Source: an uncultured Acidobacteriota bacterium (GTDB lineage: Bacteria; Acidobacteriota; Terriglobia; UBA7540). From it: DNA of 64,000 bases. This document shows positions 14,582 through 24,138 of this stretch, in pieces. A program made the translations under genes and the position numbers. The notes below the pieces were generated by a model. The model was not told where the DNA came from. It searched no databases and saw nothing but the letters and a program-made list of their open reading frames with translations. Numbering within the stretch: the stretch's first letter is position 1; each line of letters begins with the position of its first letter. Location of the stretch: positions 640,001 through 704,000 of the forward strand of contig CAWDSK010000005.1 of NCBI GenBank assembly GCA_963804995.1, given 5' to 3'.

Positions 14582-14622
14582 GTAGCGCAGAGTCTCGTGC
14601 TTTTCGAGACTCTGCGGCTTTT
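14582..14622 (+). repeat. GTAG-type REP hairpin
   Basis: GTAGCGCAGAGTCTCG-TGCTTTT-CGAGACTCTGCGGCTTTT; same architecture as the REP interrupted by the group II intron. Confidence 0.75.
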
Positions 14623-14805
14623 CGTTTGTTGCGTGCGACTTCGGATCAGCGCCTGGGACCTCATCTGTTCCCTATTCCCTGTCCCCTGCATTACCGCGTT
14701 ACGTGTCAAAGCCCTGTGGTAATAAGGCAGTGCATGTTCATCATATTAAGAACCGCATCAGAGTCTGAAAGGCACAGACTCGGCGCTGCCTGCTATGGCT
14801 ACCCG

Positions 14806-17744: not shown

Positions 17745-17916
17745 TGTTTATATCCTTTTATGAATCTGGACCTGCGGATAACATACACCTTACTGCCCCT
17801 GAACGCAATCGCAGCCGGGTAGCCACGGTCAATCGTACTTTGATTGACCGTGGGCCTTTACCCATGACCACAAACCCACGGTCAGGAAGGCACTGGCCGT
17901 GGCTTGTATCTACCCG

Positions 17917-20900
17917 CTAGAGGGCGGGCAAGGATTTTACGAGCTTCACGGTTTCAAGGCTCACGCGGATGACCTGGCCCACGAGGCGCACGATGTATTC
18001 GGGGTCGTCGGATCGATTGGGGTCGGAGCGGATGCCGCTGTGCTTGTCTTCCGTCACCTGGTATTGGTCAATCACCCATTCGAGGGCGCTGCGATTGCCC
18101 AGGCGGTATTCAAAGGTTTCAGGGGGGATGCCGCTTAGCGTCAAGGACTCGTTTACCTTGAGTGAGTGGTGGTCTTTCGCGAGGCGCATTTTGTCCTCAA
18201 CACGATAGGAGAGTGGAATCGTAGCGCCGCCGTCCCGGCGGCCGGTAGTTTGCCGGCGGGACGCCGGCGCTACAGCGCTCGTCTCGATGAATTTCAGCGG
18301 GTACGGTTCGAGCGTTTCGTAATCAATGTGCAGGTGCGCCAGTTCCTTCCCGGCTTTCGAGAATCCCCAGAAATCCTTCGCGAGCGGGATGCGCGGCAAT
18401 TCGCGCTTCAGGTTCTCCGCGTATTTGGCGCGGTACACAGGATGATGCAAAACACCGTAGACGTAATAGAAGATGTCCCATTTGGTGATTTTCTTGTCGT
18501 TGTAATAGATGCGGAAATGGTCCAGCGCCCAGTCGGTGATGTTTTCGTGTCGCGTCACCCCGTCAGACTCGTAGACGTAGAAGGGGAAGCATTGATGGCC
18601 ATCAACGGATGCACAGAGATGTAAGTCCGCAGGATGGTTCACCGCCAGTATATTTATCGAAGGAGACCGATACGCAAGATCGCTCGTCACAAGCATGCGG
18701 TTGTCGATTGCAGCCGTATCGTTTGGGAAGAATGAACGGCAAAGGCCCGGCGTATCGTTCAGCAAATCCGCCAGGTACAAGTAGCGTTTGGTGAAGGGTC
18801 GGTACTCTGCGGTTTTAATCCTAGACTCGTTAAACTCGGCATATCTTCGACGCCGCAGATCTTGCTTTAGGTCGCGGCTCCATTTCACCTTGGAATAGTT
18901 GAGGAAGCGGTCGAAGGCTTGCCCTTGGAGTTCCTTCCTGCTGCGCTTATACCGGTCAACCTCTGCGTTGTAATCCTCACAGAATTCTCGCACTCTATCT
19001 GCCAATTCGCCGCGACTGAAATCGTAAACCACTTCATCCCGATTGGTTGAAACCCCTAGAGAATAAGTCTTGAATATGGTCTGGGGCTCCAGCTCTGCGG
19101 CGCGGCCCTCCTTCGTTGCTACAGGGGGGAAGGTTTCGAATTCCTCCGCACCAATTGTCAGCCATTTCCCCGGAGTCAATTTTCCCCAATCCACCTTGGC
19201 CACTGTGCCAGTGCGCGACAACCAATCTAGTTTTTGTTCCTTGCGCCAGTTCTCCGGCAGCCGGTAGTAATGAAGTCTGTGTTTTCCGTCGTCTCCGCGC
19301 CGCACTGCGACCGTTACCCCAACTCCGACTTGTATGCCAAACACATTATGCGTCGTTCCGCTTAACTTGGGATTCTTGCGAACATTCCCGTGAAGGTCCA
19401 CGTGGTAGACGTCCGTGAAATCCTTTAACAGGTGTTCCTGCATGCCATCAAAAGCCTGCTGGTCCACGAAGCTGTTGTTTGAAATGAAGCAAACAATGCC
19501 GTCCCGCCCTTGGAGGCGATCGGTGGCCCAACGGAAGAACTTGACGTAGGGGTCGTACAACTTTGTTTTAAGCGTTGCTTTTGAGGCTCTTGCATACGTT
19601 TCCTTAATCCTACCGTCAATTTCCTTGTACTGCCTGTTCTTGTTGTTATCGTTTTCGTTTTGCTGGCCCATGTTGTAGGGCGGGTTGCCAATAACCACCG
19701 TGATGGGTGTCTTTCTTTGCCTTTCGACGCGCTCTGCGTTCTTCTCCGTTAAATATAGGTGGGGCTGGCTGGACTTGCTAAGGTCGAGCGTATCCACAAA
19801 GCACAGCCCTTCAAAGGCCTCGTACTCGCCAGTGAGCTCGAAGTAGGCGTGTTCGATGTTGAGCGAGGCAATGTAATACGGCAGCAGCATCACTTCATTG
19901 GCAAATAGCTGCTCGCGGTACACGCGCGGCAAGTCGCGGCCGGACATGCGGCGCAGCAGGTTCACGATGAAGTTACCGGTGCCGGTGCAAGGGTCGATAA
20001 TGTATACATCGGGGCTGGAAAGGCTTTTGCCAAATTCCTTTTCCAAGACCTCAGCCACGCTCGCGCACATGAAGTTGACGATTTCCTGGGGTGTATAAAC
20101 AATGCCCATCGTGTCAGCCAGCTTCACCGAGTAGCCCTGGAAGAAGCGCTCGTAAACGGTGTTCAGGAAGTGCTGCTTTTCGCTGAAGTCGGGCAGGGTG
20201 CGCGCGGCGTTTTCGATGGCCAGATAGAAACGATCCAGGCTCTTCAGGTACTCGGTGCGGTCGAAGCTATGGCTCACCAGGGCCTCAATGACCCGTTCCA
20301 CTTCCGCCGCGATGGCGTTGCGCTTCACGAATTCTGGGTTGTTGAAGATGGTTCGGAACAGGCGCTCGGTGAGCAGGTGCTGCACCAGCATCTCATCCAC
20401 GGCCTCAACGCGGATGTTGGGGTTCAGCGCAGTGCGGCAAAGGTCAAAGAACTTTTCGAAGGCGGCTTGGAATCCCGCATTGTCCTTGTGCGCCCGCTGG
20501 ATCTTCTCCACCAGGCCACGCGCGAGGTCCGGGACTCGCTCCTTGAATTCTTCAATCGCTTCTTCGAATCCTTCGATGTCCGGCTCGGTGTAGGAGAAGA
20601 ACTGGTTGAGAAGGGCGACCAATTCCTTCGGGTTGCCGAGCGTATAAGGCCCGTTGACCTTCTGTTTGTTCTGAAACAGGACGCCGGTTTGGGTGTCCTC
20701 GAAGACAATGTTGGAGAGCGGGTAGCCGCGCGCGATCTTCTTTTTGATTTCGCTGTCGAGATCGTCCTGGGTGTCTTTGGCTTCCCAATAGCCACGCGGC
20801 AGGCTGTTGCGGTCGCGCAAAGTGCCGTCAGGACGAATCAGCGCGCCGCCGGATTTCCCGGAAAGCTCCGGAATCAGCGTCCAACCCTTGAGCTTGGCGG

Positions 20901-21030
20901 TCTCCTGAAGCAGGGACTCGAAGGGCGAGCGCACGCTCATTTCGTTCAGTACACCCTGGTCCCGCAAGGCCGCGACGTTTTCGTAATACTTGCGAATGGA
21001 GCGGTGGGTGGGAGCGATAAGTCCACTCAT
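17917..21030 (-). CDS. Single-chain restriction-modification enzyme (PD-(D/E)xK nuclease + N6-adenine MTase + type ISP-like target recognition domain, no helicase)
   Basis: RPDG...WEAKD nuclease motif; IVYTPQEIV; IIDPCTGTGNF (motif I); GNPPY (motif IV); YRPFTKRYLY and LGNRSALEWVIDQY in the C-terminus. True start probably ATG 21030; the ORF-track extension to 21219 overlaps the intron. Confidence 0.88.
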   Translation of the reverse strand: MSGLIAPTHRSIRKYYENVAALRDQGVLNEMSVRSPFESLLQETAKLKGWTLIPELSGKSGGALIRPDGTLRDRNSLPRGYWEAKDTQDDLDSEIKKKIARGYPLSNIVFEDTQTGVLFQNKQKVNGPYTLGNPKELVALLNQFFSYTEPDIEGFEEAIEEFKERVPDLARGLVEKIQRAHKDNAGFQAAFEKFFDLCRTALNPNIRVEAVDEMLVQHLLTERLFRTIFNNPEFVKRNAIAAEVERVIEALVSHSFDRTEYLKSLDRFYLAIENAARTLPDFSEKQHFLNTVYERFFQGYSVKLADTMGIVYTPQEIVNFMCASVAEVLEKEFGKSLSSPDVYIIDPCTGTGNFIVNLLRRMSGRDLPRVYREQLFANEVMLLPYYIASLNIEHAYFELTGEYEAFEGLCFVDTLDLSKSSQPHLYLTEKNAERVERQRKTPITVVIGNPPYNMGQQNENDNNKNRQYKEIDGRIKETYARASKATLKTKLYDPYVKFFRWATDRLQGRDGIVCFISNNSFVDQQAFDGMQEHLLKDFTDVYHVDLHGNVRKNPKLSGTTHNVFGIQVGVGVTVAVRRGDDGKHRLHYYRLPENWRKEQKLDWLSRTGTVAKVDWGKLTPGKWLTIGAEEFETFPPVATKEGRAAELEPQTIFKTYSLGVSTNRDEVVYDFSRGELADRVREFCEDYNAEVDRYKRSRKELQGQAFDRFLNYSKVKWSRDLKQDLRRRRYAEFNESRIKTAEYRPFTKRYLYLADLLNDTPGLCRSFFPNDTAAIDNRMLVTSDLAYRSPSINILAVNHPADLHLCASVDGHQCFPFYVYESDGVTRHENITDWALDHFRIYYNDKKITKWDIFYYVYGVLHHPVYRAKYAENLKRELPRIPLAKDFWGFSKAGKELAHLHIDYETLEPYPLKFIETSAVAPASRRQTTGRRDGGATIPLSYRVEDKMRLAKDHHSLKVNESLTLSGIPPETFEYRLGNRSALEWVIDQYQVTEDKHSGIRSDPNRSDDPEYIVRLVGQVIRVSLETVKLVKSLPAL
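18221..18273. repeat. Inverted GTAG-REP doublet inserted in frame inside the RM gene
   Basis: GTAGCGCCGCCGTCCCGGCGGC...GCCGGCGGGACGCCGGCGCTAC, translated as VAPASRRQTTGRRDGGAT. Confidence 0.8.
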
Positions 21031-21151
21031 AACGATGGAGGCAATACTAGCACTTTGAGGGGGGCGGACCAAGCGCCAATGGTTGTGTCGGATGGGGGGA
21101 CATTGTCGGTGGCGGACGTGAAAAGCCGCGGACCTCAGAGACGGAGGTCCG

Positions 21152-23064
21152 GTGCGCCGGGATAAACCGGCAGAAAGCAGAGAATGAAAATTTCTCACGA
21201 GGAAGGAGCAGCGATCCACTCGGCCCCGAGTTTTGCGCTGGGCGTCGTGAGGCGCACGGTGAAGCGTAAACAGGGGAATAGGTGGGCTGGGTATTGAGCT
21301 TCGAAAATGTCCAATCAGGACGCCGACGTTTTCAGACTAAACGGAAGGCAACATGAGGCCGGGACGCCAACGCGAGTTCCGGCACAGTCCTGCGTAGTCG
21401 TAGACCCCAGACACGCCTAGACACTTTCTGCACGAGAACCGGGAGACCTCGGAGGCGCCGGCCGCCGTAGATCGTGGCCGGACGGCGGGAAAAGGCGATG
21501 GCCGTACAGCCCGCCTGCACGCTTTCGAGGAGTCGGACAGCGGAACAGTACCGATGAATCATTTGAACAAAGACGGGAAGCCGTTGGCGGAGAATGAGGA
21601 GGGAAGGCCGCTGATCAAGGAGAACACCCGTTGGCCTAACACGCACCCGACACAGAGCGGGGCACGCGTGTCCCAGGGACTCGCGGGTGTGCGGAAAGCC
21701 GCGAAGGAACACAGGGAGATGAAGTTCACGGCCTTGCTCCACCACTTAACGGTCGATCTGCTGCGGGAAAGCTTTTACGCCTTGAAGCGAAAAGCTGCAC
21801 CGGGAGTAGACGGCATGACGTGGCAGGAGTATGAAAGCGGGCTGGAAGGTCGACTCGTCGATCTGCACAGCCGGGTCCACCGCGGAGCATTCCGAGCGAA
21901 GCCCTCGCGAAGGGCGTATATCCCGAAAGGCGACGGGCGGCAACGTCCGTTGGGGGTTGCGGCACTGGAGGACAAGATCGTCCAACAGGCCGTGGTCACC
22001 ATCCTCAAGGCGATTTACGAGGAAGACTTTCTGGGCTTCTCGTATGGCTTTCGACCGGGATGCAGCCAGCATCAAGCGCTGGACGCGCTCTCGTACGCGC
22101 TCACGGTGAAGCACGTGAACTACGTTCTTGACGCGGACATTCGTGGATTTTTCGATTCGATATCCCACGAATGGATGCTCAAGTTCGTGCAGCATCGCGT
22201 CGCCGACCCCCGGATTCTCCGGCTCATCCAGAAATGGCTGAAAGCCGGGGTGAGGGAGGAAGGCGAATGGTCGGAGACGGAGATGGGTACGCCACAAGGG
22301 GCGGTGGTCTCGCCCCTGCTGGCGAATATCTATCTGCACTACGTCTTTGACCTGTGGGTGCAGGCGTGGCGCAAGAAGCACGCCCGGGGAGACGTGGTCG
22401 TGGTGCGGTATGCCGACGATACGGTCCTTGGATTCCAATCGCAGACGGAAGCCGACCGCTTTCTGGAGGATTTCCGGGAGCGGGTGGGGAAGTTTGGATT
22501 GGAACTGCATCCTGACAAAACGCGCCGGATCGAGTTCGGGCCGTTTGCCGAACTTTACCGGAAACGGAGAGGAGAAGGTAAGCCGGAGACGTTCGACTTT
22601 CTGGGCTTCACGCATATCAGCGGGAAGAACCGGAGGGGGCAATTTACCGTGAAGCGGAAGACGATCAGCAAGCGCCTGCGGGGGAAGTTGCAGGAACTCA
22701 AGCAACAACTCCGGCAGCGTCGGCACGATCCCATCGCGGATACGGGTAAATGGCTCCGGTCGGTCGTGCAAGGCTACTTCAACTATCACGCGGTACCGGG
22801 AAACCTCAACCGCCTGCGAATCTTTCGGGAACGGTTGACCCGACTGTGGCGAACGCAACTGCGTCAACGCAGTCAACGCCACCGCCTCAACTGGGACCGA
22901 CTGGGGAAGCTTGCGGCCTGCTGGTTGCCTGCTCCGCACGTTGTGCATCCTTGGCCATCCCAACGGTTCGCCGCCACACATCCGAGATAAGAGCCGTATG
23001 CGCTAACCAGCGCACGTACGGATCCGTGCGGGGGGTACCGGGTAACCGGTATCCCTACCGCAAC
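21152..23064 (+). mobile_element. Group II intron, complete (probably bacterial class E-like; no En domain)
   Basis: 5' end GTGCG at 21152. Domain V GAGCCGTATGCGCTAACCAGCGCACGTACGGATC follows the RT stop; domain VI ends CCCTACCGCAAC at 23064. The flanks rejoin into a REP hairpin. Confidence 0.9.
21554..22990 (+). CDS. ltrA: Group II intron reverse transcriptase/maturase
   Basis: KFTALLHH, AAPGVDG, RPLGVAALEDKIVQ, GTPQGAVVSPLLANIYLH, VRYADD, FDFLGF, maturase GYFNYHAVP. Confidence 0.95.
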   Translation: MNHLNKDGKPLAENEEGRPLIKENTRWPNTHPTQSGARVSQGLAGVRKAAKEHREMKFTALLHHLTVDLLRESFYALKRKAAPGVDGMTWQEYESGLEGRLVDLHSRVHRGAFRAKPSRRAYIPKGDGRQRPLGVAALEDKIVQQAVVTILKAIYEEDFLGFSYGFRPGCSQHQALDALSYALTVKHVNYVLDADIRGFFDSISHEWMLKFVQHRVADPRILRLIQKWLKAGVREEGEWSETEMGTPQGAVVSPLLANIYLHYVFDLWVQAWRKKHARGDVVVVRYADDTVLGFQSQTEADRFLEDFRERVGKFGLELHPDKTRRIEFGPFAELYRKRRGEGKPETFDFLGFTHISGKNRRGQFTVKRKTISKRLRGKLQELKQQLRQRRHDPIADTGKWLRSVVQGYFNYHAVPGNLNRLRIFRERLTRLWRTQLRQRSQRHRLNWDRLGKLAACWLPAPHVVHPWPSQRFAATHPR

Positions 23065-23135
23065 CGCTACACTTGCTTATCGGGAAGCTGCCATGGCGAG
23101 GTAAACTCGCCGCCACATAGAAACCACAGCCGACC

Positions 23136-23450
23136 TCAGGCAAAAACTTGTTGCAGTGTTTTCAGCGTCGAAGCCAAAACTGCCGGGCGAATCGTTCCCA
23201 GTCGTTTGACCAACCGGACCTTGTCCAACGTCCGGAGCTGGTCCAGAAGAATCAGTCCGCGCTTTCCGGAAAGAGTAACGGCAATGCGATAAGGGGCCGG
23301 TCTGGCGCCGGTAGTCATAGGAGCCACAATCACTATCCGAAGCTTATTGACGGCAGCGAGGCTGATGCGGCGATCCCACATCCTGTCCATCAGGTGCCGG
23401 GTCGGTTCTTGATCTTGTGGTTGAGTCCCCCGGCCCGACTCACCAGGTTG
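23136..23450 (-). pseudogene. pemK: Degenerate PemK/MazF toxin
   Basis: LRIVIVAPMTTGARPAPYRIAVTLSGKRGLILLDQLRTLDKVRLVKRLG is a PemK C-terminal motif. The N-terminus is scrambled and no antitoxin is visible. Confidence 0.7.
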
Positions 23451-24138
23451 TTCATTCGGGTGGGGGGGGACTAAGGTCGGCAACGTCTCTTGCCGATATA
23501 TGATTATGGATGAGAGGGTGGCGTCCGTCTGGTCTGAGTTCGGTTTGTAGAGGGGAGGGAGAAAGCCGATGGGTGACGGTGGGCATTTGTAAAGATGGAG
23601 GGACATCAGGGGGGGATTCAGACTGGTTTCTGCACACAATTGGGCCGCGGAGATTTCAGGTGGACGTTTACTCCAAGTGGGTCGTGGCCTTGGGCTCAAA
23701 AATCCATTGTGGCGGGCAGAACCAGGGAAAGGAGTGTCCTGGAGGTGATGGAGATAAGTCGTAAACTGTCATTTGTACCCCTGGAGGGTGAAAGACCCGG
23801 TCGTGGCTGATGGCGATAGAGGTAATACTTCCTAGGGGACTTGAAGAATGCATTTATTCGTTGATAATTGGTTTCTCTCCGGTACGTCCCGCGCGGACAC
23901 CGCGCCGGAATGGAGAGTTCCCAGGAACGTTTAGGTTCCCAACGGTTGTTCGCGAGTGGATTTGCGAAGCCGACACAACTTGTTTGCGGTTTGTTATCGG
24001 GTGATTTCTTGCCGGGCCGAGGCATTGGCAGATTTCTGACACGGTGGCTTGTATAAGGCGAGCAAACGACCCTGGTCAGGTCGCAAAACGTGACTTTCTG
24101 GGAACTCCTGTGAGTCAGACGGCGGAGCTTTATTTTCT

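Follow-up and report, generated by a model that had tools for sequence, protein, structure and literature searches.

A group II intron assigned to class E occupies RAYT-associated REP hairpins in an acidobacterial genome

A stretch of 64,000 nucleotides from an uncultured Acidobacteriota bacterium (the window) contains a group II intron that splits a REP hairpin and that is present in the host genome in many nearly identical copies. It is very probably a recently expanded, endonuclease (En)-less class E intron that homes to the tag-proximal arm of RAYT-associated REP hairpins. EBS1 (CAGACU) pairs with positions -6 to -1 of the target and a short EBS2 (UGUC) with positions -12 to -9. In the mechanism proposed here, the EBS3 G would read the C at +1, and the protein probably reads GCYA at +2 to +5, which would confine the intron to REPs. 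By analogy with class D and class E biology, reverse splicing by the RNP would take place at the replication fork, with the lagging-strand template as the single-stranded DNA target, and the nascent lagging strand would serve as primer. The intron would thereby gain approx. 150 extragenic targets with a full match, located on both strands and maintained by the host RAYT/REP system, and related introns may re-tune EBS1 by point changes toward other REP families.

The intron copies and their insertion sites

The genome searched (G000; 7.55 Mb in nine contigs) holds 38 full copies of the intron, which are 99.7-100% identical, and two more copies that are cut by contig starts. The ORF is intact in 37 of the 38 full copies, EBS1 reads CAGACT in all of them, and the 37 copies of standard length carry 0-6 differences from the consensus. 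By all signs, as judged from these sequences, the intron has been recently mobile, and because its 38 copies are young, it is presumed to be active in retrohoming. The ends of the intron, GTGCG and CAAC, are set by the 38 full-length copies with their differing flanks (Table 1). The features of a group II intron are present, namely a 5' GUGYG and a 3' AY end, domain I, domains V-VI, and a maturase ORF with a YADD motif. No endonuclease domain was found in the RT/maturase, of which RVT_1 is the sole Pfam match and whose ORF stops at domain V.

Table 1. Features of the intron, its target, and its surroundings in the window, with the loci of one related lineage
Feature	Position	Strand	Remark
Group II intron	21152..23064	+	1913 nt; IIB-type RNA of class E; 38 full copies in the genome
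Domain I core	21187..21407	+	Rfam RF02005, 170.2 bits
EBS2 core UGUC	21308..21311	+	identical in 38/38 copies
EBS1 stem-loop CGTTT-T-CAGACT-AAACG	21327..21343	+	present in MFE and centroid folds
delta U; putative delta'	U21332; A21326		delta U at the same place in relatives
EBS1 CAGACU	21333..21338	+	fold, covariation
Candidate EBS3 G	21344	+	coordination-loop position; would pair with +1 C (IBS3)
Intron-encoded RT/maturase, 478 aa, YADD, in domain IV	21554..22990	+	TIGR04416, 342.9 bits (cut-off 300); RVT_1
Domains V and VI (AGC triad, end ...CAAC)	22989..23064	+	Rfam RF00029, 39.2 bits, just below the gathering score of 40
5' part of split family A REP (left arm, loop, most of right arm)	21120..21151	+	sequence; rejoined hairpin folds
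IBS2 GACG (-12 to -9)	21140..21143	+	pairs 4/4 with EBS2 UGUC
IBS1 GGTCCG	21146..21151	+	pairs 5/6 with EBS1
3' part of split REP, CGCTAC	23065..23070	+	CTAC is the GTAG tag on the - strand
Intact empty GTAG-REP, stem variant	14582..14629	+	arm ACTCTG, one EBS1 mismatch
Family C REP (GGTAGCCACGG...)	17818..17860		just past the 3' end of the type ISP gene
Type ISP restriction-modification gene	17917..21219	-	
ORF with PemK/MazF toxin domain	23136..23699	-	domain in the C-terminal part
Loci of the EBS1 AACUUC lineage	L004, L113, L117, L119; G000:C2:652257 and C1:206552		

Excision of the intron rejoins GAAAAGCCGCGGACCTCAGAGACGGAGGTCCG with CGCTACAC, and the reverse complement of the product is a GTAG-tagged 10-bp hairpin (-13 kcal/mol), the GTAG tag of this family A REP lying on the - strand. 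The original prediction that the intron splits a GTAG-REP is thus borne out, together with its coordinates, by the boundaries of the 38 copies and by the folding of the rejoined flanks. The rejoined REP had also been likened to the intact one at 14582; the architecture is indeed the same, but the stem differs.

In all 37 copies with a readable 5' flank, the junction is RGTCYG/CGCYA (the slash marks the insertion point), situated in one of two RAYT-associated REP families; the 38th copy, at a contig end, retains 3 nt of 5' flank (CTG), which agree with RGTCYG. A T occupies position -2 in 34 of the 38 copies, and the window's copy is one of the four at minority 5/6 sites. It had been expected that the flanks would rejoin to REPs at the same position, followed by CGCTAC: the position held throughout, with CGCYA as the 3' flank in 38 of 38 copies, but only 23 of these read CGCTA and the other 15 read CGCCA. 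The insertion point never varies and lies two bases into the stem, beside the GTAG (or CTGG) tag. Although RGTCYG/C occurs 5172 times in the genome, the 37 occupied sites with readable flanks are all REP arms, so that no copy in this genome was found outside REPs, the observation on which the original prediction had been staked. The proposed specialization on one abundant REP family stood in part: all copies are in REPs, but two families are used (GTAG- and (G)CTGG-tagged), and some relatives are looser. With 33 of the 37 occupied sites extragenic by crude ORF calls, it is plausible that REPs serve as 'safe' sites; the same location applies to 199 of 221 empty REP arms.

The family A consensus (GTAGCGCRGACCTC..., 254 motif hits) fits the criterion of a GTAG-REP, a palindrome preceded by a GTAG tag, as given in the accessible text of PMC8266576, and family B REPs (GCTGGCGCAGACCCC..., 81 motif hits) carry (G)CTGG where family A has GTAG. 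Chance does not account for the frequency of these sequences: GTAGCGCAGAC is present 129 times (3.6 expected) and GTAGCGCGGAC 125 times (5.3 expected). RAYT genes scoring above the NF047646 cut-off are flanked by REPs of family A (C5:58407) and of family B (C6:722336), and at each of these loci one flanking REP holds an intron copy. Because both families flank RAYT genes, the targets of the intron are regarded as RAYT-associated REPs and not as generic terminators. Six RAYT loci of the genome exceed the NF047646 cut-off, several others are weaker, and at least three REP families flank them.

Several intron copies are located in REP arrays, and contigs C6 and C7 each have two copies close together in neighbouring REPs. 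Four contig ends (C2 start, C6 end, C7 start, and C9 end) lie in or beside intron copies. At G000:C3:1520741 and C9:287203, a family A-type 5' flank is joined to a family B-type 3' flank; as both of these hybrids (2/2) contain the intron, they may stem from recombination between copies or from joins made in assembly. No complete ORF-less REP intron was found in G000; a 5' remnant is present at C1:441118 and a 3' remnant near C9:36920, the former being the 5' part of a relative with a non-canonical 5' end, at a REP-like hairpin.

Guide pairing, occupancy, and strand

The loop presenting CAGACU, which the original prediction had put forward against the possibility that the EBS1 lies elsewhere, is the true EBS1, on the evidence of RNA folding (the stem-loop appears in both the MFE and the centroid fold), covariation, and a dose-response in occupancy. 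Recomputation reproduced the predicted pairing: CAGACU makes five of six pairs with GGTCCG, with an A.C mismatch at -2 and a U.G wobble at -6, and all six with RGTCTG. The latter had been named as the preferred target, in agreement with the prevalence of T at -2 and with an occupancy that is highest at 6/6.

Covariation was assessed in 13 related, not independent, intron variants from the host genus that start with GTGCGCC; variants with other 5' ends were left out, which makes the boundary independent of the pairing. In this set, EBS1 and the exon end form 5.74 of 6 pairs, compared with 3.24 after shuffling (0 of 5000 shuffles were as good), and over the nine distinct EBS1 sequences the values are 5.67 and 3.05, respectively. 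Pairs in relatives include AACUUC/GGAGTT, UGGCUA/TAGCCA, UGUCAG/CTGACA, and GAAUUU/AAATTC. For EBS2, in a register picked after the alignment had been viewed, the same variants give 3.09 of 4 pairs against 1.67 when shuffled (0/5000), and other registers give 1.4-2.0.

Occupancy follows the strength of EBS1 pairing. With a site profile made from the occupied sites, RGTCTG arms (6/6) hold the intron in 33 of 146 cases, GGTCCG arms (5/6) in 4 of 83 (p=3e-4 versus the RGTCTG class), and GGACCG arms (4/6) in 0 of 113 (p=1e-9). The last of these belong to an abundant variant of REP A with a stem mismatch (113-120 sites), which never holds an intron. Selection by EBS2 within the genome was considered and rejected, as the unstratified value (p=0.004) is confounded by position -2 and becomes p=0.30 once -2 is fixed. 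Occupied and empty T-type REP arms cannot be told apart at any flank position (C at -10 in 32/33 versus 110/122, p=0.30), and it is therefore covariation that argues for EBS2. The +1 C stands opposite the candidate EBS3, G21344, in 38 of 38 copies; this G is invariant in relatives and thus offers no covariation test, and position +1 seems to be A in some relatives.

Occupied sites also differ from empty ones in strand. They lie on the locally G-skewed strand in 28 of 37 cases, compared with 91 of 221 empty REP arms (p=1.3e-4); the genome is not closed, its skew is weak, and copies close to one another do not count as independent. Contig C6 has its 15 occupied sites all on the - strand, whereas the empty arms are distributed as 41 + and 15 -. 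With fourfold-site skew in three window sizes, 22, 23, and 31 of the 37 sites are on the G-skewed strand (p=0.05, 0.07, and 5e-6, respectively). The En-less introns RmInt1 and RmInt2 show a bias toward the lagging-strand template (accessible parts of PMC5894124 and PMC4615759), and the strand bias seen here may, by analogy, be linked to the same template.

Class assignment, relatives, and their targets

The protein encoded by the intron is 57% identical to that of the disrupted intron on pRmeGR4b, which is given as the class E intron S.me.I4 in the accessible text of PMC5894124. It is 35% identical to that of the intact class D intron on pRmeGR4b, taken as RmInt1, and 31-35% identical to class D proteins. 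In a 47-row tree with one class E reference, from which four loci with no long protein match were omitted, its nearest grouping is with S.me.I4 (100/97), and class D (with E.c.I9), g1, g3/F, and the class C candidate L135, presumed to be such from part of PMC5894124, fall elsewhere. No class E accessions were found in the data accompanying Toro 2013. On this phylogeny, the intron is assigned to bacterial class E, in line with the earlier expectation of a non-class-C intron. Features of class E are also found in the absence of an endonuclease domain, the 6-nt EBS1-IBS1 pairing, and an EBS2-IBS2 duplex, of which EBS2 provides only 3-4 bp.

In the closest lineages, those of genomes G005 (92%), G026 (88%), and G002, the introns are in REP A or B, and the same families are used in G006. 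In G005, five of six copies with EBS1 CGGACU are mismatched at -4, and in G026 the 3' flank is not CGCYA in two of three copies. Other lineages are found in other repeats. A lineage with EBS1 UGGCUA is in a third family, REP-C (GGTAGCCA/CG...), entered from the GTAG strand; the same family (GGTAGCCA) also flanks a RAYT gene in G000. A lineage approx. 61% identical, with EBS1 CAGAGC, is in GCTGGCGCAGAG-type hairpins. A class E intron with 53% identity (EBS1 GCGGGC, with the 5' boundary deduced from the pairing) is present in G058, a genome from another family, where 18 of 18 copies fetched are at the 3' end of a GGAG-tagged palindrome that is present 591 times. Palindromes are, however, not the only targets: a lineage with EBS1 AACUUC is in a dispersed non-palindromic repeat with the core ATGTTGATGAAAA (36 copies in G000 versus 0.4 expected), copies of a sister lineage with the same EBS1 as the present intron are at non-hairpin sites (L041, L109), and further lineages occupy unclassified sites.

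Several side observations concern these relatives. ORF-less introns of approx. 645-655 nt, each with its own EBS1, are found in REP A (L097, L103, L105), in REP C (L092, L098, L108, L116), and at L107 and L113; L092 comprises two of them head-to-tail. Non-canonical 5' ends (GAAAGCG, GATAGCG, or GAGCG instead of GTGCG) are found at L035, L036, L039-L041, L069, L097, L103, and L105. The copies on G058:C1 (L014, L051-L067), the single contig of that genome, form large blocks that alternate in strand.

REP-using introns do not appear to form one clade: on a quick tree of 18 of the 47 rows (8 rows versus 10), with the group named after the first tree had been seen, the AU test rejects a single origin of REP use (p=1e-6). 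A rule by which EBS1 follows the commonest local REP variant was likewise rejected. It fits G005, where empty sites are 31 C-type versus 14 T-type and EBS1 is CGGACU, but it fails in G026 (137 versus 16, EBS1 CAGACC) and in G000 (118 versus 84).

A broader scenario can be offered only tentatively, being on balance doubtful: class E introns of the host's bacterial class may repeatedly and independently have become parasites of RAYT-maintained REPs, with the protein or RNP recognizing the REP foot or hairpin, a re-tunable EBS1 picking the family, and ORF-less derivatives riding along. If so, REPs would join unique homing sites, terminators, and attC sites as the basis of another targeting mode, and the whole would be a system of three levels in which RAYT makes REPs and REPs feed introns.

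Confinement to REPs and comparison with known systems

Pairing with EBS1, EBS2, and EBS3 does not suffice for insertion. Non-hairpin sites with all three matches are never occupied (0/141, including 0/45 outside long ORFs), whereas 28 of 111 comparable REP arms are (p=3.9e-5, with ORFs called crudely). Nor is the intron ever found in the opposite arm of these hairpins, which has the same IBS1 and a +1 C (0/166 and 0/242), but only 12 of these arms have a compatible IBS2. Because EBS pairing alone is insufficient, a further determinant must exist, either the positions +2 to +5 read by the protein or the hairpin itself. A linear reading of the 3' flank is favoured; for comparison, RmInt1 recognizes 5 nt of the 3' exon (accessible part of PMC5894124).

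The main rival to linear reading, possible but judged unlikely, is that homing depends, as in class C introns, on the structure of the REP stem-loop or its GTAG foot, which the protein or RNP would require, and that EBS1 merely fixes the nucleotide. The empty non-hairpin sites are compatible with it, as is the fact that three separate class E lineages and that of G058 have chosen palindromes, and a role of hairpins for IIB introns at attC sites has been the subject of speculation (PMC7923331, accessible part). However, just three non-hairpin sites carry the whole linear motif, so that the genome data do not part the two readings, and recognition of +2 to +5 explains the distribution equally well. 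Moreover, hairpin energy is equal in occupied and empty REPs (median -11.6 versus -11.6 kcal/mol, p=0.77), IBS1 is inside the stem, which must open for pairing, the opposite arm of the same hairpin is never used, and other members of the clade target the non-palindromic repeat. A preference for weak hairpins in G000 was also rejected, as there is no difference in energy and the bulged GGACCG variant is not used.

Selection after the event would be another route to the same pattern: the intron would insert broadly wherever its EBS elements find a match, and copies would persist only where they do no harm, in extragenic REPs. The extragenic position of most occupied sites and the genic position of most matching non-REP sites (96/141) agree with such a filter, which is nevertheless improbable, since the 45 non-genic, non-hairpin matching sites are all empty and the copies are young, with few differences and mostly intact ORFs. 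In addition, a sense-oriented splicing intron is often tolerated within genes. Still less credible is the spread of one intron-in-REP unit by RAYT/REPIN mobilization or gene conversion instead of retrohoming. The two RAYT genes with an intron in a flanking REP and the copies in REP arrays would suit it, but copies that are 99.7-100% identical in the intron have flanks that diverge as far as the junction itself and that represent two REP families with many loop variants; this flank diversity already largely rules it out. Occupancy further tracks EBS1 pairing, and empty REPs show the reverse strand bias. Homing guided by EBS1 with linear reading of the 3' flank is thus the preferred explanation.

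Known class E introns (S.me.I4, PMC5894124; Cl.be.I2, PMC3753933; both in part) likewise have no En domain and use EBS1 plus EBS2. According to the accessible text of PMC3753933, class E EBS2 is dispensable for splicing and has been proposed to act in homing, and splicing in vitro is hydrolytic. No REP target was met in the class E literature as far as it is accessible, in contrast to the 38 near-identical copies found here in one genome, all in REPs. RmInt2 of Sinorhizobium meliloti (PMC4615759, in part) is also En-less, homes into a repeated element (the ISRm17 inverted repeats), has a lagging-template bias, and shows relaxed 4-bp EBS2 pairing with a 2-nt linker; it differs in belonging to class D and in targeting an IS end, where it has seven copies, instead of a host REP family with hundreds of members. 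Class C and IIC-attC introns (PMC4424553, PMC7923331; in part) are similarly En-less and insert at DNA stem-loops, with many extragenic sites. However, class C is characterized by a short EBS1 (3-4 bp) and no EBS2, whereas here a 6-nt sequence-specific EBS1 is accompanied by a covarying EBS2; class C introns insert directly after the terminator or attC stem-loop, whereas here IBS1 is inside the stem and no U tract is present; and the present protein falls outside the class C candidate clade.

REPs are known as targets of insertion sequences: all copies of ISPpu9, ISPpu10, ISPa11, ISPsy8, ISRm19, and ISRm22 likewise break a REP at a fixed nucleotide (PMC1525189, accessible part), but these elements are DNA transposons, not retroelements. 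The same text describes a group II intron of P. putida KT2440 that is REP-associated in only two of nine copies. TeI3/TeI4 of Thermosynechococcus elongatus (PMC2882425, in part) resemble the present intron in high copy number (28), divergence of target specificity, and ORF-less derivatives; they differ in their targets, which are other introns and IS elements, and in their dependence on high temperature, and REPs are unmentioned in the accessible text. Reviews list three target specificities, namely homing sites, terminators, and attC sites (PMC4424553, accessible part). In the accessible literature, outside of which subscription papers and the Zimmerly database largely fall, no account of a group II intron specialized on REPs was found. 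The guide logic and chemistry are ordinary, and no printed precedent was found for the target class, the copy number, or the repeated re-tuning between REP families.

The case shows how a sequence-specific intron avoids target saturation, namely with a guide aimed at a repeat that is multiplied by the host's domesticated transposase. The approx. 40 copies exceed the 28 of T. elongatus, called exceptional in the accessible part of PMC2882425. With matched REP variants at 6/6, 5/6, and 4/6 pairing, the genome is a natural homing experiment; it supplies targeting rules for class E, for which no homing data were found in the literature consulted, partly accessible as it is, and the homing role proposed for class E EBS2 (PMC3753933, in part) becomes directly testable. 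Forty 1.9-kb repeats in REPs may also drive rearrangements.

In the window, the intron has a type ISP restriction-modification gene on one side and a PemK/MazF gene on the other and is antisense to both. Scans for promoters and terminators gave nothing exceeding shuffles, and no terminator-like site was found at the intron junction. Reads from four of 20 listed runs (two DNA and two RNA), compared with all contigs, gave partial cover, mostly from relatives, and are uninformative on expression and splicing; they contain no joint that skips 21152-23064 and no circle or lariat junction. The end of the PemK/MazF ORF is 70 nt from the 3' end of the intron, and the type ISP gene, with a family C REP just past its own 3' end, is thus bracketed by REPs from two families.
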